A stretch of 64,000 bases of DNA. It comes from a virus. The DNA lies in IMG/VR virus record IMGVR_UViG_3300045988_057044, positions 53,907 through 117,906 of that record; one strand, given 5' to 3'. The notes beneath the pieces are model-generated. The model worked only from the letters and a program-made list of their open reading frames with translations. It was not told where the DNA came from and did not search any database. Made by a program: the position numbers and the translations under genes. Of this stretch, positions 44,274-62,181 are shown in pieces (the stretch's first letter is position 1; each line of letters begins with the position of its first letter).

Positions 44274-44275
44274 AA

Positions 44276-46282: not shown

Positions 46283-46363
46283 AATCTTTATTCGTTAAAT
46301 ATTTGATTGCATAATATAATAGTTAGACCAGTCATAACTGCGGTCTCAAAACCCATTACTTCC

Positions 46364-48335: not shown

Positions 48336-48338
48336 TTT

Positions 48339-48659: not shown

Positions 48660-48675
48660 TTATTAATTATATTAA

Positions 48676-48716
48676 ACAAAAAATACCCCAACAACTTCCG
48701 CTGCTGGGGTACATAG
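48676..48716 (-). terminator. intrinsic terminator after tRNA-Glu
   Basis: minus sense CCCCAGCAGCGGAAGTTGTTGGGG then TATTTTTTGTTT. Confidence 0.55.
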
Positions 48717-48788
48717 TAACGCCAACGGGATTCGAACCCGTATGGCAGGCGTGAAAAGCCTGAATCCTAACCATTAGATGATGGCGCT
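48717..48788 (-). tRNA. tRNA-Glu(TTC)
   Basis: minus sense AGCGCCA...anticodon arm CAGGC-TTTTCAC-GCCTG, T arm ACGGG-TTCGAAT-CCCGT, acceptor pairs (one G.U); CCA not encoded. Confidence 0.8.
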
Positions 48789-48791
48789 ATC

Positions 48792-49466: not shown

Positions 49467-49493
49467 AAAAATTAATCTGATTTAATGGTTAAG

Positions 49494-49566
49494 ATCCCCC
49501 ACTCGGATTCGAACCGAGGTCTCGAGATTACAAATCACGTGTTCTAACCAACTAAACTACAGGGGA
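49494..49566 (-). tRNA. tRNA-Thr(TGT)
   Basis: minus sense TCCCCTG-TA-GTTT-AGTTGGTTA-GAAC-A-CGTGA-TTTGTAA-TCTCG-AGAC-CTCGG-TTCGAAT-CCGAG-TGGGGGA-T; one U.U in anticodon stem. Confidence 0.7.
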
Positions 49567-49702
49567 ATATAGTGGAGATTTCCACTATTTACTAATTCTA
49601 ACCTCTGCGGGAATATACTCATTAGTAAAAGTTTCTAGGTTTTACTTCGGGAACCATTAACCTTGTGCTTACTGTCGGGGACCTTATCCATCCAGAAGCC
49701 TT

Positions 49703-49740
49703 GCCGAGACTGGGGGATTCGAACCCCAACCTTCACAGTG
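49703..49740 (-). pseudogene. tRNA 3'-half remnant (T arm TGGGG-TTCGAAT-CCCCA + acceptor strand AGTCTCGG) abutting tRNA-Asp
   Basis: plus GCCGAGAC-TGGGGGATTCGAACCCCA-ACCTTCACAGT-GCCGAGAG: direct repeat GCCGAGA flanks a T-arm-like hairpin; no 5' half present. Confidence 0.35.
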
Positions 49741-49812
49741 CCGAGAGTACCAGACTCGAACTGGTGACCTTCGCATAGACAGTGCGCTATTCTACCACTG
49801 AACTAACCCTCG
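49741..49812 (-). tRNA. tRNA-Asp(GTC)
   Basis: minus sense CGAGGGT-TA-GTTC-AGTGGTA-GAAT-A-GCGCA-CTGTCTA-TGCGA-AGGTC-ACCAG-TTCGAGT-CTGGT-ACTCTCG-G. Confidence 0.7.
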
Positions 49813-49823
49813 GTGTAACTGGA

Positions 49824-50279
49824 TTACTCCAGACTAATTAAACCCTTCTCTAACATAATATGGTGATTCGGACATAACCATACTAAATTATTCTCATTGT
49901 TAATCTCTTTAATAAGAGTGTCTTCGTCAAATTCTAATATTCCTTTAAGATGATGTACTTCAAGTATTGCATCAAATTCATGATTATGACAATATTGGCA
50001 TACTTTCTCACGTTCGGAACTTTCTAATACTCTACGAGCATTAGTCCTTATTTCTTGACATTTAGATGATAAGTACTTCTGCCCAGATGTATAATAACCT
50101 AATGTTTTGTTACCAATTCCATTAAGTTCTTCCCAGCAACTACGACACATTTCTGAATCTTTATGCTTAGGTTTACCACATCTAGGACATATCTTGTTTT
50201 CATCGTGCTTTATCCTACCTCTATTATTGTAAGAAGCTAATAATGAACTCCATAGGGATATGATAACTATCTGTAACAA
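49824..50279 (-). CDS. HNH endonuclease
   Basis: CPRCGK...CRSCW...CQYCHNHEFDAILEVHHL...NLVWLCPNHH (Zn-finger + HNH His-Me motif). Confidence 0.65.
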   Translation of the reverse strand: MLQIVIISLWSSLLASYNNRGRIKHDENKICPRCGKPKHKDSEMCRSCWEELNGIGNKTLGYYTSGQKYLSSKCQEIRTNARRVLESSEREKVCQYCHNHEFDAILEVHHLKGILEFDEDTLIKEINNENNLVWLCPNHHIMLEKGLISLE

Positions 50280-50442
50280 GCATACCGTTACTTATATGGT
50301 AACGTTCTTTTCTTTCTAATCTAGTGGGATTACCGTTTAGAGTAATCTCACCAGAATATTCATTCTCTTTATCAGGTTTAATTCCCTTTATGTAAATAGA
50401 ACTGCCTGATTCAGCTAAGTAGACCTGTTGTATTACGCTCAT
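50224..50442 (-). CDS. hypothetical protein (72 aa)
   Basis: ORF track. Confidence 0.3.
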   Translation of the reverse strand: MSVIQQVYLAESGSSIYIKGIKPDKENEYSGEITLNGNPTRLERKERYHISNGMLVTDSYHIPMEFIISFLQ

Positions 50443-50864
50443 AGTTCTGGAACATCTGAACGGTCATCATAATAGCCTTCATCCCCAACGAGCTGAGCCA
50501 AGCATCCGTGCATATACGGAACTAATTCCGGTCTTTCTCGATAAGTTCGGAATAAAAGCCAACTCATGCTCGTAGAGTTTCCAGTATGTCCGTTATCAAA
50601 GAACTGAAGTTTGTCCTTAATAGCATCAACTAAGTCGTATAAGCTCTCATATTGCTTCAAGAAGTCTTGATACTGTTCATCACCGAAATCTTGGAAAAAT
50701 TCCGAGAATGAAAGAGCTTGCTTTATACATAACATTTCATACTCAAACAAGTCATCCTCTTCGAAGGAATGGTCGGTTGCAGCTGAGAATAGACGATTAA
50801 ATCGTTCGATTCTGTTTTGAAACTCTACAGGGAGAGTTTCTTTGGTAAGATTTTCGTAATTCAT
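50439..50864 (-). CDS. hypothetical acidic protein (141 aa)
   Basis: ORF track. Confidence 0.4.
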   Translation of the reverse strand: MNYENLTKETLPVEFQNRIERFNRLFSAATDHSFEEDDLFEYEMLCIKQALSFSEFFQDFGDEQYQDFLKQYESLYDLVDAIKDKLQFFDNGHTGNSTSMSWLLFRTYRERPELVPYMHGCLAQLVGDEGYYDDRSDVPEL

Positions 50865-50897
50865 AATCTAAAAATTAAGTATCTAATTAATTACTAG

Positions 50898-50956
50898 TAG
50901 CGGGACTCGACCTTCAGGTTATGAGCCTGACTAGCTACCTCTGCTAACACCCCGCG
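50898..50956 (-). tRNA. tRNA-Met(CAT)-like with deleted T arm (initiator-like 5' end CGCGGGGTG)
   Basis: minus sense CGCGGGG-TG-TTAGC-AGAGGTA-GCTA-G-TCAGG-CTCATAA-CCTGA-AGGTCGAG-TCCCGCT-A; acceptor, D and anticodon arms canonical, only ~3 nt where the 17-nt T arm should be. Confidence 0.4.
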
Positions 50957-50959
50957 ATA

Positions 50960-51139
50960 TTACAAATGTTTTTTAAATATTTCACAATGATTGTATTCAC
51001 TTCCCCAACGTATGGGATATTCTTCTTCCTTGGCTTTCTTATAGCCTTCGGCTTCCTTTTTATCCAGAAATATCTGACACTCAGTTTTATAGTTCTGAGG
51101 CGCATTAGCTGGATGATGATTCACTACGTATACTTTCAT
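50960..51139 (-). CDS. small hypothetical protein (59 aa; MKVYVVNHHPANAPQNYKTECQIFLDKKEAEGYKKAKEEEYPIRWGSEYNHCEIFKKHL)
   Basis: Manual rc translation between two tRNA genes; length multiple of 3, ATG 51137-51139, TAA 50960-50962. Confidence 0.35.
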   Translation of the reverse strand: MKVYVVNHHPANAPQNYKTECQIFLDKKEAEGYKKAKEEEYPIRWGSEYNHCEIFKKHL

Positions 51140-51157
51140 AATTATTTAATTTTGTTG

Positions 51158-51230
51158 TGGACACGCAGGGACTCGAACCCTATCTTCCGGTGTGCAAAAC
51201 CAGCGCTCTAGCCATTTGAGCTAACGGCCC
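51158..51230 (-). tRNA. tRNA-Ala(TGC), acceptor stem weak in inner 3 pairs
   Basis: minus sense GGGCCGT-TA-GCTC-AAATGGCTA-GAGC-G-CTGGT-TTTGCAC-ACCGG-AAGA-TAGGG-TTCGAGT-CCCTG-CGTGTCC-A; G3.U70 present; pairs 5-7 mismatched. Confidence 0.5.
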
Positions 51231-51415
51231 ATGTTTGAGATTTTCTTTTTAATTGGTGACATAACTCATAAATTTCCACTGTTAGGATTCCATAACCTAA
51301 CATCACCAGATAAGTCTTTAATTAGTTATATTCTGGATACATAAGTTTGTAACTATATATCTTTTAACGGCAACCATCCGTTTAACAATTCTCAAGTTCA
51401 GCTTGCCTATTATAA

Positions 51416-51778
51416 CTACGCAGGGACTGGCTTCGACTTATTAGCATAAATGCTAACAAAATGTCCACCACCTTGTTGAGGCGGAAGTATCAAATTTGGA
51501 AAGCGACTACTCCATAGTGCTAATCCAAGAGGAGACGTGCTTGTAAAAAACTCTCCAAGTTCCGATATAGGTTTTTTCAGTTCTCTAAGTTTTTCCGAAA
51601 TTTCCTTATACCTTTTACTCTTTTTATTAATCCCACTTCGCTGTGCCTCTAACTCAGCTATATTATCTAATATAGGTTTGACAATAGACTTGTAGTCTTC
51701 CTGAGTTATTAACAGCTTAACTTGACTTATACCATTTGCATAAGTAAGTTTAAACTTTCCAATAGGTTGTACTATCAT
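51416..51778 (-). CDS. hypothetical protein (120 aa)
   Basis: ORF track. Confidence 0.4.
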   Translation of the reverse strand: MIVQPIGKFKLTYANGISQVKLLITQEDYKSIVKPILDNIAELEAQRSGINKKSKRYKEISEKLRELKKPISELGEFFTSTSPLGLALWSSRFPNLILPPQQGGGHFVSIYANKSKPVPA

Positions 51779-51932
51779 ATCTAATTAATTAAAAGTTGGT
51801 GGATGCTAGCCGTTTCTATTCCACCATTGCGTACTACAGTGCTAGCTACCGTCTAGACGACTCTCTTCCTCACATCGGTCTAGAGTTTGCTGGATTACTT
51901 AGTTAAAAACTAAGGAGGGTTCAGCAAAAAGG

Positions 51933-52017
51933 CGTATGGTGCAGGATTCGAACCTGCGATGGGATTTCTCACGGCGGGTTAACAGCCCGCTGCCGTCGGC
52001 CACTTGGCTAACCATAC
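51933..52017 (-). tRNA. type II (long variable arm, 85 nt) tRNA with anticodon GTT (nominally Asn)
   Basis: minus sense GTATGGT-TA-GCC-AAGTGGCCGAC-GGC-A-GCGGG-CTGTTAA-CCCGC-CGTGAGAAATCCCATC-GCAGG-TTCGAAT-CCTGC-ACCATAC-G; Tyr/Ser-like body, Asn-like anticodon loop. Confidence 0.55.
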
Positions 52018-52259
52018 ATATTATTTCCTCCCAGACATCTGTAAGTACCCCATTGGTACTTACCTTTTAATGATATTTTTACTCTTGTCCTCTGTATGGA
52101 GGAGGTATTGTTCCAGACACTAACCAAGTGTAGTTCTTAGAACTCTGTTCAAAATACCATTTAGCAGCTTTCTTTACAACATTAATTACTTTCTTCATAA
52201 CATTAAAGTTTAAAATTGTTAATAATTAATCTAATAACAGAGCCACAAAAGGAGTTTAG

Positions 52260-52339
52260 TTGCGGAGGTAGGATTCGAACCGTTTATGACGATTTCTAGG
52301 TTATGAGCCTAGCGAGATGACCAACTTCTCTACTCCACG
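52260..52339 (-). tRNA. tRNA-Met(CAT), initiator-like (C1.A72 mismatch), with enlarged/irregular T region
   Basis: minus sense CGTGGAG-TA-GAGA-AGTTGGTCA-TCTC-G-CTAGG-CTCATAA-CCTAG-AAATCGTCATAAACGG-TTCGAAT-CCTAC-CTCCGCA-A; T stem does not form canonically. Confidence 0.45.
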
Positions 52340-52475
52340 ATATTAGTAGCTAATTTACATCCGCTACTCAGGATGCCTTTCACGATAAGGGACGCCCTTC
52401 TAACCGTAGGTGACGACTGGGTGATAACGTAACCAGACACGTTAACTATTGTAGTTAAAAGACTTGCACGTCGAG

Positions 52476-52550
52476 ACTCGGTGGTCAGATTCGAACTGAC
52501 GAATCAGCAGATTTGCAGTCTGAGCCATTAAACCACTCTGGTACACCGAG
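52476..52550 (-). tRNA. tRNA-Cys(GCA)
   Basis: minus sense CTCGGTG...TCAGA-CTGCAAA-TCTGC...GTCAG-TTCGAAT-CTGAC-CACCGAG-T. Confidence 0.7.
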
Positions 52551-52560
52551 GTGACTACTT

Positions 52561-52620
52561 CTCCACCCCGTAAGACTAGTTATTCGGAGATAAGACCAGT
52601 TACAACTTGTAACTGTGGAG
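52561..52620 (-). other. ~60-nt hairpin-rich element (possible tRNA remnant or small RNA)
   Basis: CTCCAC...GTGGAG terminal pairing; perfect 7-bp hairpin CAGTTACA-ACTT-TGTAACTG; no T-loop consensus. Confidence 0.25.
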
Positions 52621-52633
52621 CCTTGTTTCGTCG

Positions 52634-52708
52634 TTCCGATTAAAGGATTTGAACCTCCCACTAATGCTTTATTGGTATGGGCGCTCTACCATACTGAGCT
52701 AAATCGGA
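52634..52708 (-). tRNA. tRNA, anticodon undetermined (canonical acceptor, D and T arms; aberrant 23-nt anticodon region)
   Basis: minus sense TCCGATT-TA-GCTC-AGTATGGTA-GAGC-G-[CCCATACCAATAAAGCATTAGTG]-GGAGG-TTCAAAT-CCTTT-AATCGGA-A; no 5-7-5 anticodon arm can be drawn. Confidence 0.45.
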
Positions 52709-52712
52709 AAAG

Positions 52713-52784
52713 AGTGGATAATGAGAATCGAACTCACATCCTCGGCATGGCAAGCCGATGCACTAACCATTGTGCTATACCCAC
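52713..52784 (-). tRNA. tRNA-Gly(GCC)
   Basis: minus sense GTGGGTA-TA-GCAC-AATGGTTA-GTGC-A-TCGGC-TTGCCAT-GCCGA-GGAT-GTGAG-TTCGATT-CTCAT-TATCCAC-T. Confidence 0.8.
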
Positions 52785-52789
52785 AAATG

Positions 52790-52859
52790 TGCAGGTAGAG
52801 AGACTCTCCCCTCCAGATTGGAAGTCTGGCGTGCTCAATCCATTAACACCACACCTGCA
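52790..52859 (-). tRNA. tRNA-Gly(TCC)-like with T loop reduced to 1 nt
   Basis: minus sense GCAGGTG-TG-GTGT-TAATGGATTGA-GCAC-G-CCAGA-CTTCCAA-TCTGG-AGGG-GAGAG-T-CTCTC-TACCTGC-A; T stem retained, 7-nt T loop missing. Confidence 0.45.
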
Positions 52860-52893
52860 TAATGGAGAGTTTTACGATACTCTCCTAAACGAA

Positions 52894-53238
52894 TTACTCA
52901 GATAACAGCTCCTGCATATCAATCTCGCCAGCTACCTTAGTAATAGCGATTTTGAACGGATTCCCCTTGATTTTGTCAAACAAGTGAGCATCACGAGTTT
53001 CTTTCACCTCGTCAGGGACGTTAAATTTCTTCTTGCCTTTCTCTATGGTTTTCCATGTAACCACCTCGCAGCGAGTTATCTCGTAAACGCTGTCGTTTCG
53101 GTCAACGTAAACCTTGAAAAAGTTCTTTTTGTAGTTGAACTTCTCAACCCTTTTGAAATTCTTGGGATGAGCGTGGAACTTCAAGTCGCATTTTCCATTA
53201 GCTAAGAAAATCAATTCTGCCATAATAATACTCCGCAT
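52894..53238 (-). CDS. hypothetical protein (114 aa)
   Basis: ORF track. Confidence 0.4.
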   Translation of the reverse strand: MRSIIMAELIFLANGKCDLKFHAHPKNFKRVEKFNYKKNFFKVYVDRNDSVYEITRCEVVTWKTIEKGKKKFNVPDEVKETRDAHLFDKIKGNPFKIAITKVAGEIDMQELLSE

Positions 53239-53359
53239 AGTCGGAGATTCAAAGTTAAACTATGTTAATTCCAGTCTTTCGTCTGGCACTCCACCTCGTT
53301 TTAACCAATAGCTACTATTATTCACTATTTGAGCTAAGCTCTAAACTGGGATAAAGGTA

Positions 53360-53635
53360 TTAGTCTATGTAAATAAACGGTTTTCCAAATTCTTCCATGA
53401 AGGACTCAAACCATCCCTCCATTTCTTCGTCACTATCAAAATAGATAGATTCATCATGTCTTTTAGAGAACTCTAAAATGATATGAGGTTTCTGATATAC
53501 TATTCCATCCTTGTAGAAGGCATATCTCTTCTCTAAAGATGAAATCATTTTTTCTTCCGTATAAGTTCCAAAACATGGGTTCCAATAATCTCGATGTATT
53601 TTCCAAAACAAGAATCGTCCACATAATGTACCCAA
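53360..53635 (-). CDS. hypothetical protein (91 aa)
   Basis: ORF track. Confidence 0.35.
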   Translation of the reverse strand: MGTLCGRFLFWKIHRDYWNPCFGTYTEEKMISSLEKRYAFYKDGIVYQKPHIILEFSKRHDESIYFDSDEEMEGWFESFMEEFGKPFIYID

Positions 53636-53675
53636 TCGGGATGCTTTCTAGTTTTAAAAACTAAAACTCTCTTTA

Positions 53676-53978
53676 CTAAACTTCCATTAATATACTTGTC
53701 CATACTTTAATCCCAATATTCTGGGCAGTCATTAATAATCCCTTTTCGCAAAAGCCTTTATCATAGAAAATGCAGGATGAACACGAAAGATTGTCCCTAG
53801 ATTCATATTCTTGAATACCTTCTTGAATATCTCTTTTTGCTTTATATCTATCCTTTCTATTCTCTTTCTTGTATTCATATTGCATCATTCTGCTTCTATA
53901 AGGAGAAGTGCAATTCTTAAGCATCTTTGCGTATTTAGAACTATCAAGGAAGTCCGTAATTGACTCACAGACCTTCAA
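53676..53978 (-). CDS. hypothetical protein (100 aa)
   Basis: ORF track. Confidence 0.35.
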   Translation of the reverse strand: MKVCESITDFLDSSKYAKMLKNCTSPYRSRMMQYEYKKENRKDRYKAKRDIQEGIQEYESRDNLSCSSCIFYDKGFCEKGLLMTAQNIGIKVWTSILMEV

Positions 53979-54121
53979 CGCCTTATTATAGGAACATTAT
54001 ACCTTACATTGGCTTTAATCCCGGCAACAGGTACGTAAAATTTACCGCAAGCGTTGTAAACCTTTTTAGCTCTCGAAATCCACTTTCTTTTAGAAAGTTC
54101 TCTTCTTAATTCTCTATCCAT
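53975..54121 (-). CDS. small basic protein (48 aa; MDRELRRELSKRKWISRAKK...)
   Basis: ORF-track frame 53975..54268 truncated to internal ATG (54119-54121) because its 5' part overlaps tRNA-Cys. Confidence 0.3.
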   Translation of the reverse strand: MDRELRRELSKRKWISRAKKVYNACGKFYVPVAGIKANVRYNVPIIRR

Positions 54122-54141
54122 AAGCAATAAGATTAGTGTAG

Positions 54142-54215
54142 AATCTAGAGTGGGATTCGAACCCACGAAACACGGTTTTGCAGACCGTTCCCTTAGACCG
54201 CTCGGGCATCTAGAC
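54142..54215 (-). tRNA. tRNA-Cys(GCA) (second copy, different body)
   Basis: minus sense GTCTAGA-TG-CCC-GAGCGGTCTAA-GGG-A-ACGGT-CTGCAAA-ACCGT-GTTTC-GTGGG-TTCGAAT-CCCAC-TCTAGAT-T. Confidence 0.7.
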
Positions 54216-54242
54216 ATAAAGGGGAGACTAGCTCCCCAAGTT

Positions 54243-55655
54243 TTATAGTACCAAAGAGTTGTAAGCACCTCTACGATACAGAGACGGTCTACTATTTGGA
54301 TCTTTAATCCAGTAGTAATTGATTTCCTTGCTGTCTTTAGTAACTACGATTCCTAGTTTCTTGTCAATCGCAATAATTTCGTCATCATAGAAGTCATCTC
54401 CAACTGCCAGATTTGCGAACTTAATATCCGAAGATACATAGTAATATGACAGATTGTGGAAATTGTGGCGGCGATATTCATAATACTCGTTAAGAGCTTT
54501 TCTTTCCTCAACAGTACAGTTATCCTCATCGTCTACAATAGGCTTCGGCATCGGATTGTTGAATCTCTCAACAGCTTTAGAGAACTCTTCAATAGAGAAT
54601 TTATTCTTATCAGCAGAAATCTCACCAGCATATGCATAACCTCTAATGCAGGAATAGTCATACTCATTAGTTACTACGTTGAAGAAGCCTTTAGCTCTTC
54701 TCAATCCTTCTATACCGTGAATATTGACCTCATTAACTATAGTTTTGAGAATATCAATAGTAGATATAGTCAAAGAATCAATGAAATCAAGCAAATCTTG
54801 ACGAGCTTCCGGCACTTGAAGTGCGTCGTCCAGATATTCGTTCACAACCTTCAAATCCAAGTTGCCAAATTCCTTGACATAACGGATTCTAGACGGACGT
54901 CCTACCATATTCTCATTGATGGTCATAGCATTAGTAGTAAGCAGGAAAACCTTGCGATACTTAGAGTTGTAAACACCGTCCATGATTTGCAAGATAGTAG
55001 AATCCGATTCACTGAAATTCTTTTCAAATTCATCCAAGAACAGAATGCAATCTCCTTCAATACCAGAAAGGAACTCAATCATAGATTGATTATGGTCTCC
55101 CATATCCTTTACGATAATGATGGGCAGATTTAGCTTGTTAGCCAGTTCCTTAGCAGTAACAGTCTTTCCAGTGCCCTTTGTACCAGTAAGCATAATTCCG
55201 AGATTGCCTTCTGTAGCGTGATACGTCTTAATTACATGGTCAATAAACTCGTTCTGCAAACCATACATTTTGTACGGGAATACAAACTTATCCGCATATC
55301 TGTCTAGGTGATAACCTGTCATTGTCAGACAAATACTGTAGATTCCAACTGGGAGAGACTGCTCAACGCTATAGCCTGAGCTTACCTGGGTATATGTAGA
55401 CCCAGAACACATCCAAACTTTGTTCATTTTTTCTTTTTCTAAGTTACTTAAAACAGATGCCTGTTTGAGACATCCTACTAATTGATTAGCTATAGAATCT
55501 ATAGCTTCTTTGTTATCAGTTTCCTCTGAGAGTCTTTTTACAAACCACTCTTTAGAACGGGCAACTATTTGCTCATCAGTCTCATTTTCAGAGATTGTTT
55601 CAGCAAATTCATGGTAGATACTAGTCAGCTTACCTTCTAATTCTTCTACGGTCAT
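54243..55655 (-). CDS. AAA+ ATPase
   Basis: Walker A IMLTGTKGTGKTVTAKEL, Walker B CILFLDEFEK. Confidence 0.65.
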   Translation of the reverse strand: MTVEELEGKLTSIYHEFAETISENETDEQIVARSKEWFVKRLSEETDNKEAIDSIANQLVGCLKQASVLSNLEKEKMNKVWMCSGSTYTQVSSGYSVEQSLPVGIYSICLTMTGYHLDRYADKFVFPYKMYGLQNEFIDHVIKTYHATEGNLGIMLTGTKGTGKTVTAKELANKLNLPIIIVKDMGDHNQSMIEFLSGIEGDCILFLDEFEKNFSESDSTILQIMDGVYNSKYRKVFLLTTNAMTINENMVGRPSRIRYVKEFGNLDLKVVNEYLDDALQVPEARQDLLDFIDSLTISTIDILKTIVNEVNIHGIEGLRRAKGFFNVVTNEYDYSCIRGYAYAGEISADKNKFSIEEFSKAVERFNNPMPKPIVDDEDNCTVEERKALNEYYEYRRHNFHNLSYYYVSSDIKFANLAVGDDFYDDEIIAIDKKLGIVVTKDSKEINYYWIKDPNSRPSLYRRGAYNSLVL

Positions 55656-55810
55656 TAGTAATCCTCCTCGTTATGTTCATTAGTTATGAGAGAACGAGCC
55701 TTTTCCATACCAGATTCGTAAGACTCTGTAACAAACACTATGGCAGTTTTTAGGTCCATGGAATTGCCATTGTCTACCATTTCCTGAATAATTTCACTTA
55801 ACTCTTTCAT
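55655..55810 (-). CDS. small hypothetical protein (~51 aa) translationally coupled (TAATG) to the AAA+ gene
   Basis: Manual rc translation MKELSEIIQEMVDNGNSMDLKTAIVFVTESYESGMEKARSLITNEHNEEDY; stop overlaps downstream ATG. Confidence 0.3.
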   Translation of the reverse strand: MKELSEIIQEMVDNGNSMDLKTAIVFVTESYESGMEKARSLITNEHNEEDY

Positions 55811-55832
55811 ATTACTTAATAAATAAAAGTTG

Positions 55833-55907
55833 TAGGGTAGGAGGGACTCGAACCCTCACGGCACATGGGCCTAAACCATGCCTGTCTACCAATTCCAGCA
55901 CTACCCC
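55833..55907 (-). tRNA. tRNA with anticodon TAG (Leu, reads CUA) on a class-I-length (75 nt) body
   Basis: minus sense GGGGTAG-TG-CTG-GAATTGGTAGA-CAG-G-CATGG-TTTAGGC-CCATG-TGCCGT-GAGGG-TTCGAGT-CCCTC-CTACCCT-A; lacks the long variable arm of bacterial tRNA-Leu. Confidence 0.6.
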
Positions 55908-55916
55908 TTGCTCTAG

Positions 55917-56348
55917 TTAATTGTTATTATAATTGTGAAGTTGCATATGACAGTTAGAGCAAACTATCATTAGATTATCCAACTTATTATTATAATGGTT
56001 ATTATCCTTGTGATGTAATTCTAAAGGAATTTTCATTCCCTCTGATAATCCACAACGCTCACACTTATCTTCTTTATATCCATCCTCTATTAATCTTATC
56101 CTCTTTCTAGAATTAGAAACATTAGGATTTTCTATCAGGTCTAAAGCATCTTTCCTCTTTGGGTCTAGTCTTTTTCCCTTAGAACCTTGATTCCCCTTAT
56201 ACTCTATTCCCATCTTAATATAATAGGATTTTAAAGTATCAACCTTGCAATTTAGTCTTCTAGCTATTTCAGCATTAGACTCATTTTCTGAAATCCATTG
56301 TCGGATTTCCTATTCTCTTTCTAAAATGTCGATTCTTGCCTTTGCCAT
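55917..56348 (-). CDS. HNH endonuclease with N-terminal HTH domain, interrupted by an in-frame TAG (56310-56312) 12 codons after the ATG
   Basis: ORF-track ORF 55917..56213 (CERCG...HHKDNNHYNNKLDNLMIVCSNCH = HNH). Its frame continues upstream through EIRQWISENESNAEIARRLNCKVDTLKSYYIK (sigma-region-4/LuxR-type HTH) with no start codon until MAKARIDILERE-TAG. Confidence 0.5.
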
Positions 56349-56383
56349 ATTAAATACTATAAATTCCGCCACTACCCCAACTG

Positions 56384-56845
56384 TTAGGTTGCTTTTATTT
56401 CTTTAGCAACCTTAACCATTTCGTTATATTTCTCTACTACCTTATTAAAGTCTTCCTCAGATATTTGAAAAACTTTGTGAGAGTTTCCATACCACTCTTC
56501 TTGACCAGGAAGCCACGTTATATTAATATACCTCTTCTTTTCTAATTCCATATGTACCTTAGATGAATCAATATAAACTGAATAGGCATCCTCTTCGATT
56601 CTACTACTTCGTGGATCTGTTGGGTCGGATGTAAGTCTGAAAAACATTGTTGACATACCATTGAAGTCTATCTTGAAACACTTTCCTATATAGCTTTTAA
56701 GTAGTGCTTTATGTCTATTATCGCTATCTACCTTCTCTTGGTGTCTCTTCCGTTCTTCTTCCTTAACATATTCATTATACTCTCTTAGAGTGCTGTCTGG
56801 ATGCTTGTCCAGATATTCTTCTATAGGACTCTTTCTTCCCCACAT
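56384..56845 (-). CDS. hypothetical protein (153 aa)
   Basis: ORF track. Confidence 0.4.
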   Translation of the reverse strand: MWGRKSPIEEYLDKHPDSTLREYNEYVKEEERKRHQEKVDSDNRHKALLKSYIGKCFKIDFNGMSTMFFRLTSDPTDPRSSRIEEDAYSVYIDSSKVHMELEKKRYINITWLPGQEEWYGNSHKVFQISEEDFNKVVEKYNEMVKVAKEIKAT

Positions 56846-56846
56846 A

Positions 56847-57257
56847 TTATACTACTTTAAGATGGCAATAAATACTAAATTCTGGAATTGGAATCCAAGT
56901 TGCAATACCATTGCTATCTACTGGTTTACCCTTGTTGATTGTACAAATAGTGATATGAGGTTTAGCATTTGCACAAGGCAGATATTGGTCTCCCAATTCT
57001 ACTCCAAAAGCTATTGCTTTCTCAGAAATCCCTATTTTGTTTACAATTAATCGAAAATTACCATCTATACGATATTGTAGGTCATTAGCCATCTTTTCTT
57101 CATGTTGATTTTTATGGAGAAGAGTGCAATGATCTAAATAAATAGTACTTCCTCTTTGGAACACCAGATTGCAAATAATGGGATTTCCAATGATAACTTG
57201 CATAAGTTTGTTTCTAGTTGGTTCATCTAAGAACAATCCAAAATACTGATAATTCAT
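56847..57257 (-). CDS. hypothetical protein (136 aa)
   Basis: ORF track. Confidence 0.4.
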   Translation of the reverse strand: MNYQYFGLFLDEPTRNKLMQVIIGNPIICNLVFQRGSTIYLDHCTLLHKNQHEEKMANDLQYRIDGNFRLIVNKIGISEKAIAFGVELGDQYLPCANAKPHITICTINKGKPVDSNGIATWIPIPEFSIYCHLKVV

Positions 57258-57395
57258 AAGTTTTATTTTTTAATTATTTGAAATCAGACCTCATATCCGT
57301 TCCATGGAGCGCAATATAAGCCGACTATACTCGTGGCAACCTATATTACTTGATATGTCTTTTCGGTTGTACTACTTTCTCCGTATCTGATTATG

Positions 57396-57464
57396 TGAAC
57401 CTATTGGGACTTGAACCCAAATCTAGCCAACGCGTCTAGACCTTTATTCCAATTAGGTAGGCTC
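57396..57464 (-). tRNA. tRNA-like sequence, undetermined (good acceptor and T arm, 4 nt short, no canonical D/anticodon arms)
   Basis: minus sense GAGCCTA...GGTCTAGACGCGTTGGCTAGA...TTGGG-TTCAAGT-CCCAA-TAGGTTC-A; interior is palindrome-rich (GTCTAGAC, ACGCGT). Confidence 0.3.
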
Positions 57465-57479
57465 AAGTGTGGACCTAGA

Positions 57480-57554
57480 GGGCTTTGAACCCCCGACCTT
57501 CTGATTATGAGTCAGCTGCTCTGACCGGACTGAGCTATAGGTCCTAAATATTAT
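57480..57554 (-). tRNA. tRNA-Met or tRNA-Ile2(CAT)
   Basis: minus sense GGACCTA-TA-GCTC-AGTCCGGTCA-GAGC-A-GCTGA-CTCATAA-TCAGA-AGGTC-GGGGG-TTCAAAG-CCCTC-TAGGTCC-A. Confidence 0.75.
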
Positions 57555-57904
57555 TCGTATGCACTTATTGATTTGCATTCAAATATTACTGTCTTCCCTA
57601 GAACATCACTTGGTTTTATATTAAACTTAGCAAATTCCAGCATCAACTTTTCCATTTCTTCTACAGAATGTGTTTCTCCTATGATACTTTTTCTATCTAT
57701 AGAAGTTTGAAAATTGGCAAACAATTCTGTAACTAAACAACTATTACTCTCATTTCTTACTATTATTTGTTCTTCTGGTTTTAACTTTTCTGCTGCATCA
57801 GAGTGTAACTTACCACACCAACAAACTCCGAATGAATTTTCCCGGACTTTACATTTACCTTTGTCACAAAACTTGACAACCTTTCTATAATCTTCTGGCT
57901 TCAT
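57551..57904 (-). CDS. hypothetical protein (117 aa)
   Basis: ORF track. Confidence 0.4.
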   Translation of the reverse strand: MKPEDYRKVVKFCDKGKCKVRENSFGVCWCGKLHSDAAEKLKPEEQIIVRNESNSCLVTELFANFQTSIDRKSIIGETHSVEEMEKLMLEFAKFNIKPSDVLGKTVIFECKSISAYE

Positions 57905-58329
57905 AATTTAGAACGTATATCGTTAATTAACGCTTGAATCATATGAGTTTGTTCTCTCCATTTGTAATGAAATTCAAGACTGTTAGACTCTTCTTCGGTT
58001 AATGGAATATGAAATAATATTTTATGGTATATATTCTTAAACCATTTCCTCTCAAGCTTCCTACTTTCCTTAGTTCCTACCTCATATCCTCTCTTAGATT
58101 TACGGTTCTTAGAACGACCACGTGCCCAACCAAATTGTTTGCCATCATTCACCCATTTCCAGTCGGCTCTGGCTTCTTTTTGCCTAAGCCTCTTGTTAAT
58201 GATATTAATCTTTTCTATCTCTTCCATATTTGTTAATTTTGTTGGGCTACTAGGACTCGAACCTAGACTGACAGAATCAAAATCTGTAGTGCTAACCATT
58301 ACACCCAATACTAACTTAACTATTCTCAC
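57901..58329 (-). CDS. hypothetical basic protein (142 aa)
   Basis: ORF track. Confidence 0.4.
   Translation of the reverse strand: MRIVKLVLGVMVSTTDFDSVSLGSSPSSPTKLTNMEEIEKINIINKRLRQKEARADWKWVNDGKQFGWARGRSKNRKSKRGYEVGTKESRKLERKWFKNIYHKILFHIPLTEEESNSLEFHYKWREQTHMIQALINDIRSKL
58242..58313 (-). tRNA. tRNA-Gln(TTG)-like; acceptor strands do not pair (possible chimera/pseudogene)
   Basis: minus sense TAGTATT-GG-GTGT-AATGGTTA-GCAC-T-ACAGA-TTTTGAT-TCTGT-CAGT-CTAGG-TTCGAGT-CCTAG-TAGCCCA-A. Confidence 0.45.
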
Positions 58330-58370
58330 GAACCATTAAGTCCACATTTACCATGAAAACACACAATGTG

Positions 58371-58447
58371 TGGGACGAGGCAGAATCGAACTGCCGCTAT
58401 CGTCCCGGATTTTCAGTCCAGCGCTCTACCAACTGAGCTATCGTCCC
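58371..58447 (-). tRNA. tRNA-Phe(GAA) with 9-nt variable loop
   Basis: minus sense GGGACGA-TA-GCTC-AGTTGGTA-GAGC-G-CTGGA-CTGAAAA-TCCGG-GACGATAGC-GGCAG-TTCGATT-CTGCC-TCGTCCC-A; variable region repeats the 5' motif GGGACGATAGC. Confidence 0.7.
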
Positions 58448-58698
58448 ATGTAATCAGATACTCAAATCTAATACATTTTTGTTCCACCAGTTAGTTAAAT
58501 CTTGTAAAGAAAACTTAAATACAGTTTCAAAGTCTTCTACAGAAACAACTTCCTCTCCTATCTCTCCAGCCCACATGCTTTTGTCTCTTCTAAGGAAATG
58601 GGTTCTTCCATAAGCCATGTATCATTCAGTAACATATCCATGAATGGCTTATGTAGTGATGCAAATATTCTAATCTTCCATAACAATGTTTATTTAAG

Positions 58699-58783
58699 CG
58701 GAGGCAGCTGGATTCGAACCAGCGGGACCCGAAGGCCCTCCGTCTTAGCAGGACGGTGGTTTAAGCCACTCACCCATACCTCC
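58699..58783 (-). tRNA. tRNA-Ser(GCT)
   Basis: minus sense GGAGGTA-TG-GGT-GAGTGGCTTAA-ACC-A-CCGTC-CTGCTAA-GACGG-long variable arm-GCTGG-TTCGAAT-CCAGC-TGCCTCC-G. Confidence 0.8.
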
Positions 58784-58845
58784 AGATTGCAAAGGGGCTT
58801 TTGTTATACTTTACTATTGAAATTGTAAAGCCCCTTCGCTGTGAA

Positions 58846-60819
58846 TTACTTCACTTCTTCAAACTCAGTTGTTTCAGCTTTCTTCTCCTCCAACTCTTTC
58901 TTGCCGAGAACACTTTTCAGTGTATCAGCGAAAGGTATAGAGCGAAGCAAGTCGAACGCAGGATTCAAGTTCTCAGCAGTTTTAGCCATGAAGTTACCAG
59001 CGGTATTCTCGTTACCATAAACAGTAACCTGTCCAAGGTGAACGTGTTCAAACATCTGAGCAGATGCTTCTGCAATACCTGTCAACTGGTCAACTGTCTT
59101 GTACTGAACCACCATTTCCGGAGTCAAGCCAGATTCAATCATCTTCTGGACTGCCAGAGCAGGAGCCATTTCAATAGCCTGGACTTTATCAGCCTCAGCC
59201 ATCAAAGACGCTCTCTTACCCTCAGCTTCAGCAAGCAGTTTCTTTCTTGTACCTTCAGCTTCAGCTTCTAGCTGCAACTTTGTAGCATTTGCTTTAGCTT
59301 CTGCTTCTTTCAGAATTTCAGCAGCCTTAGCTTCTGCTTCAAGTACGGCTTTTTGCTTAACAGCTTCTGCCTCAATTGTGATACGTTCCTTCTCCTTTTG
59401 AGCGGGAACAATCGTCTCTGCATGAAGCTTAGCTTCCATAGCCAATGCAGCTGCTTCGTTTACTTCCAGTTGCTTTTCTTGCTTAGTTTTCTCGATAGTC
59501 ATTTGAGCTTCTACCTTAGAAGTTCCTGCTACCTTTTCAGCTTCAGCCTTAGCTTTCTCGGCTTCTCCCTTAGCTTTAGAGACTTCAATCGTGGCATTTT
59601 GTTCTGCCACTCCTGCAATCTTATCAGCTTCGGCTGCCTTTACACGCTTGTCTGACTCATACTTAGCAACTGCAGCTTCCTGTTCGTTAATTGCCTTTTG
59701 CGTCTCAGCTTCCTGTTTTTGCTTAGCCTGAGCAATACGAGTTTGTTTCTCTGCTTCTGCTTCTGCTTTCTTAGAGTCAGCTTCTGCTTTAGCCTTGGCT
59801 ACATTAGCCTCAGCTAGTGATTCAGACTCTGCTCTATTAGAATCGGCTTCTGCTTGAGCTTTGGCTATAGCTGAAATTTTCTCAGCTTCTGCTTTAGCTT
59901 TCTCCGATTCTGCTGCAGTATTAGCTTTAGCAATATTGGCAGCTTGCTCAGCTTTCTGATTAGCAATACCTGATTGCTTATTCTTCTCAGCTTCTGCAAG
60001 TTTGATTTCCTTCTCCTGGTTAATCTCTGCCACACGAACCTCCTGCTCTTGTCTAGTCTGAGCAACAGTAGTTTCACGCTCTTTCTCAGCGTCTGCTACA
60101 GCAATTTCACGTTGCTTGTTGGTTTCTGCAATCTGAATATCTCCTTTCTTTTTCTCTTCTGCAATGTCAGCCTGTGCTTGAGCAAGAGCTTTAGTTGCAG
60201 CTTTCTGACCTAGATTCTTGATATAGTTTGCATCATCCGAAATATCAGCATTGTTAATGTTGATAATACTGAAACCTACCTTATTCAACTCGGTCTCAAT
60301 ATTCTCCTTAGCTTTGCCGATAAACTTGATTCTATCAGCGTTAATTTCCTCAATCGTCATCGTAGCCATCAAGCTTCTCACTTCACCAATGAGAATATCC
60401 TTGATTTGGTCTGAGATTTCAGAAGTTTTAGCTGTTAAGAATCTACTTGCAGCATTTTGCATTAATGTTTGAGTAGTCCCAATACCAGTGGTCAATGTTA
60501 CAGGAATAGTTACCTTAATCATTTGACTGGAAACACCAGTAACATTTACTTGAATTTGGATAGGTTTCAAAGACATTTTAGCCCAGTCTTGAATTACTGG
60601 CATTACGAATGTACCTCCACCATGAATGATTTTGGACGGCAGAATAACTTCCTCCGACTTTCCAGTCTTCTCGTTAACTACCTTTTTCTTACCAGCTTTA
60701 CCAAACACAACCAAGATTTCATCACTGGCACACTTACGATACCGTGACAAAAGTCCAATAAAGGTTAAAACTACCAGCAATACAATAACACCTGCTACAA
60801 TAAGAGTTTCTGTTGTCAT
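58846..60819 (-). CDS. flotillin-like SPFH/band-7 protein with long Ala/Glu/Lys-rich coiled coil
   Basis: N-terminal TM helix (LIVAGVIVLLVVLTFIGLL), SPFH-like region, then ~300 aa of AEAEK/KAEAE repeats typical of flotillins (FloT/YqiK family). Confidence 0.65.
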   Translation of the reverse strand: MTTETLIVAGVIVLLVVLTFIGLLSRYRKCASDEILVVFGKAGKKKVVNEKTGKSEEVILPSKIIHGGGTFVMPVIQDWAKMSLKPIQIQVNVTGVSSQMIKVTIPVTLTTGIGTTQTLMQNAASRFLTAKTSEISDQIKDILIGEVRSLMATMTIEEINADRIKFIGKAKENIETELNKVGFSIININNADISDDANYIKNLGQKAATKALAQAQADIAEEKKKGDIQIAETNKQREIAVADAEKERETTVAQTRQEQEVRVAEINQEKEIKLAEAEKNKQSGIANQKAEQAANIAKANTAAESEKAKAEAEKISAIAKAQAEADSNRAESESLAEANVAKAKAEADSKKAEAEAEKQTRIAQAKQKQEAETQKAINEQEAAVAKYESDKRVKAAEADKIAGVAEQNATIEVSKAKGEAEKAKAEAEKVAGTSKVEAQMTIEKTKQEKQLEVNEAAALAMEAKLHAETIVPAQKEKERITIEAEAVKQKAVLEAEAKAAEILKEAEAKANATKLQLEAEAEGTRKKLLAEAEGKRASLMAEADKVQAIEMAPALAVQKMIESGLTPEMVVQYKTVDQLTGIAEASAQMFEHVHLGQVTVYGNENTAGNFMAKTAENLNPAFDLLRSIPFADTLKSVLGKKELEEKKAETTEFEEVK

Positions 60820-60835
60820 CTTTTAAAAATTCTTT

Positions 60836-61354
60836 TTAGTTAAAATAATACTTTCCATTCTCAAATTTAGAAATTACCACACGAGTACCAACCATATATC
60901 CCATTTTTGGGACTTCTGGATAGGCTACAATTTCCTCAGAACCTCCATTTACTTCAATAGTAATGAAGAAATGGTTTTCACAAGGAACTGTGATAATTCC
61001 AACCCTTCCAATCAAGGCTTCACCCTCTTCTGGAATAACTTGATGCTGGAGTTTTAAACAGAGTTTATATAAGTAGTAAAGTATAACCACGAAAAGAATA
61101 CCGCATACTAATGCGATTAGATAATCATACCATTCTACAGAATGGGATACGGATTGCTTAACACAAAGCCATCCACTAGCCCCCATTATAAAATGGATTA
61201 ATCCCTTAAATGAGACAATATCACTCACGTTCATATCTAGTTCTCCATCTAAATCAACATCTAAGTCAGTGTCTCCGCCAAACCAAGATAAGATGAATTG
61301 AACTAGAAAAATGCCATATGAAATGGCTGCCAAAAGATAATACACTTCACTCAT
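60836..61354 (-). CDS. NfeD-like membrane protein (flotillin partner)
   Basis: Hydrophobic N-terminal helices plus C-terminal beta-rich OB-like segment (GRVGIITV...GYMVGTRVVISKFENG); located immediately upstream of the flotillin gene as in bacterial nfeD-floT operons. Confidence 0.5.
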   Translation of the reverse strand: MSEVYYLLAAISYGIFLVQFILSWFGGDTDLDVDLDGELDMNVSDIVSFKGLIHFIMGASGWLCVKQSVSHSVEWYDYLIALVCGILFVVILYYLYKLCLKLQHQVIPEEGEALIGRVGIITVPCENHFFITIEVNGGSEEIVAYPEVPKMGYMVGTRVVISKFENGKYYFN

Positions 61355-61575
61355 CTCTTACAATATTTACAATCTGGGTCATGGACTACTCCTACAACTT
61401 GGTATTGTCCCTCGGTGAATTTAATGTACTGATGATTCTTGTATTTAAAGTGAACTGCGGTATCAAATGGAATAATTCCATCTCTGGTATTCCTAGTAGC
61501 TTCTAGTTCACTAGTTGGACCTGAACAACTAAATAGTAGCACAAGTCCTAATGAGATAATTGTTAGCTTTTTCAT
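61351..61575 (-). CDS. small lipoprotein (74 aa)
   Basis: MKKLTIISLGLVLLFSCSG = signal peptide + lipobox. Confidence 0.45.
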   Translation of the reverse strand: MKKLTIISLGLVLLFSCSGPTSELEATRNTRDGIIPFDTAVHFKYKNHQYIKFTEGQYQVVGVVHDPDCKYCKR

Positions 61576-61583
61576 AATTCTTT

Positions 61584-62000
61584 TTAATCTTTGTTTTTAT
61601 TTTTAAAGTGTATATCTCTATGACAATTTGCACACAGAACTATACATTTCTTTAATTCTTCCTCCATCTTTTTTCTAGAACCATTGTGAGCTAAAGTAGC
61701 AATACATGATTCCTTTTCATCCGGATTTTCATGGTGAAAGTCCAAGACCCACCATCTGTCTTCTCCACATATAGAACATTTCAAAGAAGATTTTATCTCT
61801 CTAATATAATCTTCGCATTCTTTCGAACTTTCCCTAGCTTTTGCTAGATAGGTCTCCTTGTTCTTCTGATAGTGAAGTTTATTGTAGGCAGATTTACACT
61901 CTTTGCATTCTGCCTGCAATCCGTCTTTCTTAGCCTTATTCTTTCCAAACTCAGAAATAGGCTTTTCCTTTTTGCATTTACTACAAATTTTTGTTTCCAT
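61584..62000 (-). CDS. HNH endonuclease (Zn-finger type); ORF-track N-terminal extension to 62159 is translated tRNA
   Basis: METKICSKCKK...CKECK...CSICGEDRWWVLDFHHENPDEK...CANCHRDIH; upstream 50 codons of the track ORF overlap tRNA-Ser(TGA). Confidence 0.6.
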   Translation of the reverse strand: METKICSKCKKEKPISEFGKNKAKKDGLQAECKECKSAYNKLHYQKNKETYLAKARESSKECEDYIREIKSSLKCSICGEDRWWVLDFHHENPDEKESCIATLAHNGSRKKMEEELKKCIVLCANCHRDIHFKNKNKD

Positions 62001-62068
62001 AGCACGCCCGCTAGGAATAATAGTTTTGGAGACTATCCTCTTAAACCACTTGAGTACGGACGTATTTG

Positions 62069-62157
62069 CGGAAGGACAGGGATTCGAACCCTGGGGACGT
62101 GTTACCGCCCGACGGTTTTCAAGACCGTTGCAATAAGCCTGACTCTGCCACCCTTCC
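62069..62157 (-). tRNA. tRNA-Ser(TGA)
   Basis: minus sense GGAAGGG-TG-GCA-...-TGC-A-ACGGT-CTTGAAA-ACCGT-long variable arm-CAGGG-TTCGAAT-CCCTG-TCCTTCC-G. Confidence 0.8.
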
Positions 62158-62181
62158 AAAAGCTAGTCTTATGACTAGCCA
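62158..62181 (-). terminator. intrinsic terminator between 62270..62719 and tRNA-Ser
   Basis: perfect hairpin GCTAGTC-ATAA-GACTAGC (minus sense) followed by TTTT. Confidence 0.5.

Follow-up and report, generated by a model that had tools for sequence, protein, structure and literature searches.

How did a phage come to carry a flotillin gene with a gene for a small NfeD-like membrane protein directly upstream of it, and what would the two proteins do during infection? The window analyzed here is a stretch of 64,000 nucleotides (positions 53,907 to 117,906 of IMG/VR record IMGVR_UViG_3300045988_057044), in which an earlier note had marked a candidate nfeD-flotillin operon. Both open reading frames were found where that note had placed them, on the minus strand and 16 nt apart. 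The upstream gene (60836..61354) encodes a 172-aa NfeD2-like flotillin partner with three transmembrane (TM) helices and a C-terminal OB barrel. The spacer, read from the sequence, occupies 60820..60835 on the same strand, and the downstream gene (58846..60819) encodes a 657-aa SPFH2-type protein, assigned from its Band_7, FloT and PDB matches and its identity to Bacteroidales proteins.

The pair had been described as not typical phage cargo, and the records agree: the window flotillin was matched in only 7 of 50,697 phage records, and of these only two are complete genomes in which a flotillin gene is annotated. A literature search returned no paper that ties flotillin or NfeD to crAss-like phages. 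The phage Perkons paper was considered as a precedent and rejected; it concerns integration into the host floA gene. The kinds of component and their automatic flotillin and NfeD-like labels are already known. The context and evolution of the pair are new, and no new mechanism is claimed.

Genomic setting and the flotillin

Functionally, the window is a replication and nucleotide-metabolism module of the phage; it encodes PolA, NrdD, NAMPT, ligases and helicases, and an RNA ligase and a tRNA-ligase CPD-type ORF are also among the genes around the pair. Its PolA is closest to those of crAss-like Bacteroides phages, and the carrier is an abundant lineage of large (~150-190 kb) crAss-related human-gut phages. 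The pair is flanked by tRNA-Ser(gct) (58698-58783) and tRNA-Ser(tga) (62068-62157) and lies in a run of 14 tRNA genes. The earlier label "tRNA/HNH region" holds for the tRNA genes, but Pfam did not reproduce the HNH label of the neighboring ORFs.

A 74-aa lipoprotein-like ORF (61351..61575, minus strand; lipobox-like MKKLTIISLGLVLLFSC) precedes the partner gene, and its stop overlaps the partner gene start (ATGA). It was considered as a third core member of the operon and rejected. The ORF is present only in 23 closely related loci, in all of which it ends at the partner-gene start, and it is therefore classed as a lineage-specific accessory. A sigma-70 promoter scan found 8 sites where 8.5 were expected, which is chance level, and Bacteroidetes-type TAnnTTTG motifs occurred at background density only, so neither scan supports a promoter claim. 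There is no terminator-like site between the partner and flotillin genes.

Hydropathy, Pfam and composition bear out the layout first proposed for the 657-aa protein, an N-terminal TM helix followed by an SPFH domain and a long coiled coil. The single strongly hydrophobic segment, a predicted membrane anchor, spans residues ~5-24 (60748..60807, minus strand) with a hydropathy peak of 3.18. It is followed by the basic motif SRYRKC, and 6 K/R fall within residues 24-45, from which we infer by the positive-inside rule that the bulk of the protein is cytoplasmic. The motif, in the form SRYR[KR]C, is invariant among the aligned phage flotillins and also occurs in the Bacteroidales sequences inspected. 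The SPFH/Band_7 domain (Pfam PF01145 envelope, residues 47-223; 60151..60681, minus strand) was matched with E = 1.3e-19 and 71.3 bits against a cutoff of 23.6.

An Ala/Glu/Lys-rich helical region of ~365 residues, the putative coiled coil, extends from residue ~198 to ~562 (59134..60228, minus strand) as judged by composition, model helices and alignment. A+E+K+Q make up 62-74% of residues 201-550, which are predicted to be helical, and the region aligns with the coiled coil of Bacteroides flotillins and with that of YqiK. The AF2 model of the flotillin monomer, whose pLDDT of 53.9 is too low for a fold search, was used for secondary structure alone; its low-confidence helices cover residues 198-286, 291-430, 435-468 and 474-562. 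At this pLDDT, cage formation draws no support from any structure computed here.

Sequence searches place the protein in the flotillin family. Every PDB sequence matched at E <= 0.001 was flotillin-1 or flotillin-2 (best 2.4e-17), with no other SPFH class among them; the closest solved relatives are human flotillin-1/2. The best NCBIfam match was the FloT model NF058507 (residues 9-282), at 133.6 bits against an equivalog cutoff of 700 bits, which indicates a family-level relative and not a FloT ortholog. The C-terminal flotillin domain, Pfam Flot PF15975, had no match in the window flotillin at E <= 0.1, whereas the B. thetaiotaomicron ortholog does match it (1.4e-6). The phage C-terminus nevertheless aligns with that ortholog save for an insertion of ~22 aa. 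A tail-fiber or tape-measure protein had been named as the alternative. With a significant SPFH domain and an alignment to Bacteroidales proteins named "flotillin family protein" that runs from end to end, the 657-aa protein is a flotillin homolog along its entire length and neither of these.

The partner protein and its relation to NfeD

AF2 was used to model the partner, and the model (mean pLDDT 79.9) supports the original description of a 172-aa protein with TM helices and a C-terminal OB-like beta segment. The predicted TM helices lie at residues 2-24, 49-70 and 75-102, followed by a hydrophilic linker (103-117) and a five-stranded beta domain (118-171; pLDDT 85-91). The OB-fold domain, taken as residues 117-172, maps to 60839..61006 on the minus strand, and its five-stranded barrel provides the NfeD-type fold that the first reading had supposed. 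NfeD2 proteins are small, with about three N-terminal hydrophobic stretches, a short hydrophilic linker and a C-terminal beta-barrel (Hinderhofer 2009; PMC2636767), and the architecture of the partner equals this description. The ClpP-like serine protease domain of long NfeD/STOPP proteins was found in the partner neither by Pfam nor in the AF2 model, and the protein is only 172 aa long.

The loop between TM1 and TM2 is acidic (residues 28-45, DTDLDVDLDGELDMNVSD, with DxDxDG at residue 32; 61220..61273, minus strand). Residues 25-48 contain 8 D/E and zero K/R; two positions of the loop, D32 and D40, never vary, and D28, D36, G37 and D45 hardly do. Model confidence is under pLDDT 50 at residues 28-35. 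The Bacteroidales orthologs likewise carry a D-rich loop.

When the partner was compared with PDB structures, all four NfeD structures ranked ahead of any other OB fold. Because this fold is generic, likeness of structure does not by itself prove that the partner and NfeD are homologous. The window partner had no match in Pfam (E <= 0.1), NCBIfam or PHROGs, and a profile search of PDB sequences returned no NfeD, just TM-helix noise. Pfam YqiJ_N and YqiJ_OB (PF21001, PF07290) matched neither the window partner nor the 8 Bacteroidales orthologs scanned, and hhalign of the partner against E. coli YqiJ gave a non-significant E of 0.11. Among 34 close relatives of the partner, three reached a sub-threshold E of 0.039 with Pfam NfeD (PF01957). 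A distant family member, P0346, matched Pfam NfeD over the OB region with E = 4.4e-6 and 27.2 bits, a little short of the 29.1-bit cutoff. The earlier note had proposed a Pfam check, and its outcome was mixed: Band_7 was significant, but Flot and NfeD had no significant match in the window proteins. Automatic names for the partner in IMG, UniRef and BFVD are NfeD-like. The family is common to Bacteroidales and their phages, with ~1,000 representatives at 50% identity, and is missed by the Pfam NfeD and YqiJ models.

The absence of a significant match to the NfeD and YqiJ models, and the commonness of OB folds, would suit an unrelated small membrane protein with a chance OB likeness, a pair carried along neutrally, or one created by misassembly. 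The structure ranking (4/4 NfeD structures first) and the transitive NfeD match of P0346, which sits in the OB region, speak against this explanation, as do the linkage and selection data given below.

The TM segments of the partner bear on a different alternative. HflK/C-FtsH controls lambda CII, and by analogy a scaffold with a three-TM partner might tie up holins or a membrane protease, or regulate them, and so control the timing of lysis. Bacterial partner orthologs match holin families weakly (E 0.0018-0.3), and NfeD/SPFH pairs are tied to membrane proteases (the name of COG1585; PH1510/PH1511, PMC2636767). The holin matches, however, are below cutoffs and cover TM segments only, the partner has no protease domain, the pair lies in a replication, nucleotide and tRNA region and not beside lysis genes, and Bacteroidales chromosomes carry the same pair outside any phage context. 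Control of lysis timing is highly improbable.

Linkage, selection and descent

In all 79 genuine related viral loci the two genes are neighbors and share a strand, with intergenic gaps of 0-33 nt across 17 divergent pairs. The exact partner sequence is present on 675 contigs, and hundreds of independent contigs carry the pair. Values of dN/dS (flotillin, 0.05-0.20; partner, 0.12-0.25) show that both genes are held under purifying selection in phages. Strict adjacency to the flotillin in all 79 viral loci and in every informative bacterial one, purifying selection on both genes and recurrence on independent contigs largely refute a chance likeness, a passenger or an artefact, and any of these is extremely improbable.

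Chromosomal Bacteroidales flotillins are the nearest cellular relatives, with 42-46% identity over the first 300 residues. Seventy-six Bacteroidales loci were recovered, and a partner homolog lies directly upstream in every one with intact upstream DNA, ending ~20 nt before the flotillin gene. A profile built from phage sequences only detected the Bacteroidales partners with E values of 1e-25 to 1e-50, plus one truncated match at 2e-15. These searches show, at the level of sequence, that the phage and chromosomal Bacteroidales pairs are homologous for both proteins. The operon analogy, which had rested on gene order, now extends to the 79/79 viral adjacency and to gene-for-gene homology with the chromosomal Bacteroidales pair.

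The earlier proposal to look for host acquisition by phylogeny led to the Bacteroidales. The neighbor-joining trees included a single distant outgroup. That of the flotillins recovers a phage clade (bootstrap 88) whose sister group is the clade of Bacteroidales sequences, with phage branches much longer than the bacterial ones; support in the partner tree is low (bootstrap 45 for the phage clade). The flotillin of phage csAssE-Sib groups with bacterial sequences (bootstrap 87) and is without the phage-clade insertions, and for these two reasons the csAssE-Sib copy is probably a separate acquisition. The flotillin tree thus suggests two acquisitions, an old one in the lineage of 150-190-kb phages and another in csAssE-Sib.

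Two other lines of evidence on origin were considered and rejected. GC content might have pointed to recent horizontal transfer, but the flotillin gene owes its high GC to the first positions of Ala and Glu codons, and its GC3 of 0.34 is inside the range of other phage genes. A host assignment from MAG labels failed, with whole phage contigs binned under Bacteroides, Clostridium, Gastranaerophilales and Methanobrevibacter. The analysis gives host-range evidence, pointing to Bacteroidales, for this uncultured phage lineage.

Proposed roles and known counterparts

Retention of the complete module under purifying selection through deep divergence argues for a fitness benefit during Bacteroidales infection. 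In B. subtilis, FloT recruits NfeD2, with >96% co-localization and co-migration, and deletion of nfeD2 gives no phenotype (PMC4928834). By analogy with B. subtilis FloT/NfeD2 and with flotillin cages, the single N-terminal helix of the phage flotillin would enter the cytoplasmic membrane after infection, leaving the bulk of the protein in the cytoplasm. The long helices would drive oligomerization into a membrane-attached scaffold, and the scaffold would recruit the three-TM partner through the OB domain of the latter. We tentatively favor a module that supplements or replaces the host flotillin system, which is the most likely reading of its role. The membrane and its protein complexes would thereby stay functional until a big phage has completed its infection cycle. 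Such a role would fit the nearby genes of the "replace or repair host consumables" kind, namely NAMPT, RNA ligase and 14 tRNAs. Taken as a whole, the account of the pair as a phage-borne copy of the Bacteroidales flotillin operon is probably correct.

The same neighborhood could be read as counter-defense or membrane repair, in which the scaffold would protect the membrane from abortive-infection effectors or entry damage and buy time for replication. NAMPT, RNA ligase, the tRNA-ligase CPD-type ORF and the 14 tRNAs are of a type that restores what defenses destroy, and in B. subtilis the membrane-repair system PspA is connected with the membrane through an SPFH protein (PMC8581546). PADLOC models, however, gave zero matches, no PspA-like or defense-related gene adjoins the pair, and the argument from neighborhood is circumstantial. 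This role, which overlaps the favored one and is inseparable from it by sequence, is unlikely.

Alternatively, the diverged phage flotillin might interfere with the host system, poisoning or re-purposing host microdomains so as to block the entry of rival phages or disable membrane complexes. It keeps a host-like anchor and SRYRKC, and its C-terminal region aligns with that of the host protein, so that mixed phage-host assemblies could form. The long phage branches and clade-specific insertions are compatible with neofunctionalization. A dedicated partner gene and purifying selection on both genes, on the other hand, look like a self-sufficient module and not a decoy; flotillin is in no known exclusion system, and PADLOC found no match. 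Interference or superinfection exclusion is quite unlikely.

Length differences raise a further possibility. Flotillins of the main phage clade, which excludes csAssE-Sib, are ~100 aa longer than those of Bacteroidales (657 versus 535-562 aa), with ~55-65 extra coiled-coil residues and the ~22-aa insertion near the C-terminus, both of which fall in the helical region of residues ~198-562, and most phage lineages also have an SPFH loop insertion at residues 45-62. The longer coiled coil suggests that the phage assembly differs in size from the host one and may fail to mix with it. It is a long shot that the captured operon has become a phage-specific membrane organelle, in which a larger, non-mixing cage and the acidic-loop partner would form dedicated platforms that the phage needs, perhaps as anchors for replication or assembly or as a shield of the membrane against abortive-infection pore formers. 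If so, flotillin would be a bona fide viral infection factor, and bacterial flotillin and NfeD function would gain a selectable phenotype. The phage pair also offers a natural system where an effect on, for example, burst size, membrane integrity or resistance to defense systems might be measured.

The Pyrococcus horikoshii pair PH1510-PH1511 differs from the phage pair in both members: PH1510 (STOPP/NfeD1b) has a ClpP-type protease domain that the phage partner does not have, and PH1511 is a stomatin (SPFH1) whereas the phage SPFH protein is a flotillin. E. coli yqiJ-yqiK has the same order, partner then flotillin-family protein, and YqiK shares 24% identity with the phage flotillin (E 2e-13), but YqiJ belongs to Pfam YqiJ_N/YqiJ_OB, which match neither the phage nor the Bacteroidales partners. 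In B. subtilis yuaF(nfeD2)-yuaG(floT), the SPFH2a/NfeD2a type of Hinderhofer et al. 2009, the partner has no detectable sequence similarity to that of the phage, and the operon has a third gene, yuaI, that the phage pair lacks. Among phages, Vibrio phage KIT04 (LC487410) has an annotated flotillin family protein, but the protein upstream of it has 82 aa, three TM helices and no OB domain, unlike the window partner. csAssE-Sib (OR575929) carries the same pair in its replication module, annotated as a "transmembrane protein" (37% identity) and a "flotillin family protein" (41% identity). The pair of the Bacteroidales (for example B. thetaiotaomicron, B. xylanisolvens, Parabacteroides gordonii and Phocaeicola massiliensis) is like that of the phage in gene order and tight spacing. 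Its partner has 164-177 aa with TM1, a D-rich loop, an SFKG..HF motif, TM2, TM3 and an OB domain, and its flotillin has SRYR[KR]C, an SPFH domain, a coiled coil and a conserved C-terminus, all as in the phage proteins.

Homology and architecture of the two proteins

Both ORFs lie exactly where the earlier note had placed them and are read on the minus strand: a 657-aa flotillin gene at 58846-60819 and a 172-aa NfeD-like partner gene at 60836-61354, with a 16-nt spacer. The 657-aa protein is a flotillin. Band_7/SPFH was matched at residues 47-223 (E = 1.3e-19), in line with the SPFH domain claimed for this coiled-coil protein, and a tail-fibre or tape-measure identity was rejected. The NCBIfam FloT model matches residues 9-282 with 133.6 bits, far under its 700-bit equivalog cutoff, and flotillin-1 and flotillin-2 were the sole matches in a sequence search of all PDB entries (E ≤ 0.001), at E ~2e-17 over residues 61-289. 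One strongly hydrophobic N-terminal segment is followed by a basic stretch, which by the positive-inside rule predicts that the bulk of the protein is cytoplasmic. The AF2 model of the monomer is of poor quality (pLDDT 53.9) and served for secondary structure only; in it a TM helix precedes an alpha/beta region (~43-190), after which come ~365 helical residues. Ala, Glu, Lys and Gln make up 62-74% of residues 201-550. The N-terminal TM helix and the long coiled coil noted earlier were both recovered, the helix also in this low-confidence model.

The 172-aa protein is assigned as a probable NfeD2-type partner through modelled structure and context, not sequence models. Sequence evidence for an NfeD identity is weak. 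Nothing significant was found in Pfam, NCBIfam or PHROGs, and Pfam NfeD was touched by just 3/34 close homologs (E = 0.039). A partner profile search of PDB sequences did not find NfeD, and an hhalign comparison with E. coli YqiJ was not significant. An exhaustive profile search gave a family of 1031 representatives, and the OB region of a distant member, P0346, matches Pfam NfeD at E = 4.4e-6, slightly below the gathering score. The IMG name of the phage partner is a COG1585/NfeD phrase; 'NfeD-like C-terminal domain-containing protein' is the UniRef name of Parabacteroides and Phocaeicola orthologs and the BFVD name of a viral protein 76% identical to the partner.

Structural evidence for an NfeD-type partner is strong. 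An AF2 model derived from 33 homologs (pLDDT 79.9) predicts three TM helices, an acidic loop of low confidence and, at residues 118-171, a five-stranded barrel (pLDDT 85-91). Foldseek returned no match at E ≤ 0.001; its three lowest-E matches were all at ~0.015, and those at ranks 2 and 3 (3wwv and 3cp0) cover the whole target domain with TM scores of 0.73 and 0.66. NfeD2 proteins (YuaF/YqiJ) as described by Hinderhofer et al. 2009 (PMC2636767) have the same architecture, and sequence similarity is nearly absent within that class (PMC2636767). A chance resemblance of the OB domain is largely excluded.

Linkage, selection and genome setting

The flotillin and partner genes are a unit. The partner profile retrieved 80 loci from IMG/VR; in 79 of them flotillin lies directly downstream of the partner, on the same strand, and the remaining one is a spurious match of 34 residues. 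Linkage persists at partner identities as low as 36-45% (flotillin N-terminus 47-53%), the gap is 0-33 nt in 17 divergent pairs, and no terminator-like site was found between the two genes in the window. The operon arrangement, previously argued from gene order, now has this adjacency, these gaps and the upstream Bacteroidales partner behind it. Purifying selection acts on both genes (dN/dS 0.05-0.20 for flotillin, 0.12-0.25 for the partner), with faster evolution of the partner in several comparisons; that the pair is a neutral passenger can largely be set aside. One viral contig, IMGVR_UViG_3300045988_069849 (270,378 bp; L030 and L077), carries two divergent copies whose partners are 76% and 43% identical to the window partner; it represents either two phages joined in a chimeric assembly or one genome that has two modules.

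The window is phage DNA, with replication and nucleotide-metabolism genes arrayed on one strand: family A DNA polymerase (3211-5394), NrdD (18062-20233), NAMPT, RNA and DNA ligases, and DnaB-like and other helicases. The polymerase is nearest to crAss-like phages (IAS virus, 52%; cr111_1, 50%; Bacteroides phage PhiCrAssBcn, 45%). Near-identical DNA is present in human-faeces 'Bacteriophage sp.' records, and IMG/VR viral contigs with the pair are mostly 95-193 kb long. On the strand of the pair are RNA ligase (8937-10304), NAMPT (36745-38295), an ORF matching a tRNA_lig_CPD-annotated gene of a sister contig (56847-57257) and 14 tRNA genes (43448-62157; 43.4 to 62.2 kb), including the two on either side of the pair. 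Together these look like a set that restores NAD+ and tRNA pools.

A 668-aa protein at 44276-46282 (minus) matches phrog_1735 over its full length (E = 3.5e-239), lacks a Pfam domain and is a highly conserved, uncharacterised protein of these phages. The 191-aa ORF at 61584-62159 (minus) has no HNH match in Pfam, although CxxC...CxxCH motifs are present. It overlaps tRNA-Ser(tga) (62068-62157), so its true start must be internal; the sister contig's shorter call carries a PDDEXK_5 annotation. A 74-aa lipoprotein-like ORF (61351-61575, minus; signal MKKLTIISLGLVLLFSC) has a stop that overlaps the partner start (ATGA). It is confined to 23 closely related loci and ends at the partner start in all of them.

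Affinity to Bacteroidales

A profile of the phage flotillin N-terminus, run against 185,579 species genomes, yielded 76 Bacteroidales loci and four mis-binned phage contigs. The bacterial loci (42-46% identity) come from Bacteroides, Parabacteroides, Prevotella, Phocaeicola, Leyella and Xylanibacter; many of them lie in complete chromosomes or on chromosomal scaffolds of Mb size. Wherever the DNA upstream is intact, a partner homolog ends ~20 nt before the flotillin gene. Searched with a profile of phage partners only, these partners matched at E = 1e-25 to 1e-50, plus one truncated at 2e-15; no Pfam family was found for them either. The four phage contigs (L086-L089; three of 140-186 kb and one 5.9-kb fragment) carry the pair and were deposited in MAGs labelled Bacteroides, Clostridium, Gastranaerophilales and Methanobrevibacter; these placements are binning artefacts, not host evidence.

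The proposed phylogenetic check for host acquisition, by neighbour-joining with E. coli YqiK as root, united 16 phage flotillins in a single clade (bootstrap 88) whose sister group is the Bacteroidales clade; the flotillin of phage csAssE-Sib (OR575929) clusters with bacterial sequences (bootstrap 87). These placements suggest one old acquisition in the main, crAss-related phage clade and a separate one in csAssE-Sib; the partner tree does not resolve. A recent transfer was rejected because flotillin GC3 (0.34) is within the range of other phage genes and the higher overall GC of the gene reflects Ala and Glu codons.

Compared with Bacteroidales flotillins, the main-clade proteins have a coiled coil longer by ~55-65 residues, a ~22-aa insertion close to the C-terminus and, in most lineages, an SPFH loop insertion at residues 45-62, whereas csAssE-Sib flotillin lacks the main-clade insertions. 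Phage and Bacteroidales flotillins share a basic motif next to the membrane anchor, SRYR[KR]C (flotillin residues 24-30; 60730-60750, minus), that E. coli YqiK lacks; Cys included, it does not vary among the aligned phage sequences, and all Bacteroidales sequences inspected have it. Their partners share an acidic loop with an invariant DxDxD(G) motif (residues 28-45; 61220-61273, minus); counted over residues 25-48, the loop of the window partner has 8 D/E and no K/R. Motif and loop may dock together or bind a cation.

Possible roles and known relatives

In B. subtilis, NfeD2 is recruited by FloT and the two co-migrate as one assembly (PMC4928834). By analogy, the phage flotillin would form a membrane-attached oligomer and recruit the three-TM partner via its OB domain. 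With lower confidence, the pair might supplement or replace the host system, keeping the membrane functional in infection; many of the genes around it replace host consumables (NAMPT, RNA ligase, tRNAs). Rival explanations, indistinguishable from sequence data, are that the pair repairs the membrane against abortive-infection effectors, interferes with host microdomains or excludes other phages, or controls lysis timing.

Phage flotillins are rare, as expected for what had been called atypical phage cargo: 7/50,697 phage records matched, among them only two complete genomes in which a flotillin gene is annotated. No paper on a phage flotillin and NfeD module was found in the literature searched; an SPFH lipoprotein has been noted in a phage and its presence called unexplained (PMC13239085). 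Of the two annotated genomes, only csAssE-Sib (L001) has the full pair, with replication genes on one side and an exonuclease on the other; the start of its NfeD-like gene is overlapped by a gene annotated 'acyl carrier protein' (7182-7433). The T5-like Vibrio phage KIT04 (LC487410) encodes a 473-aa 'flotillin family protein' (L166, 2189-3859). The gene just before it encodes an 82-aa protein that has three hydrophobic stretches, lacks an OB domain and is either a truncated or a different kind of partner. Automated database names already exist for both window proteins. The pair belongs to an already known kind of system and carries phage-specific modifications.
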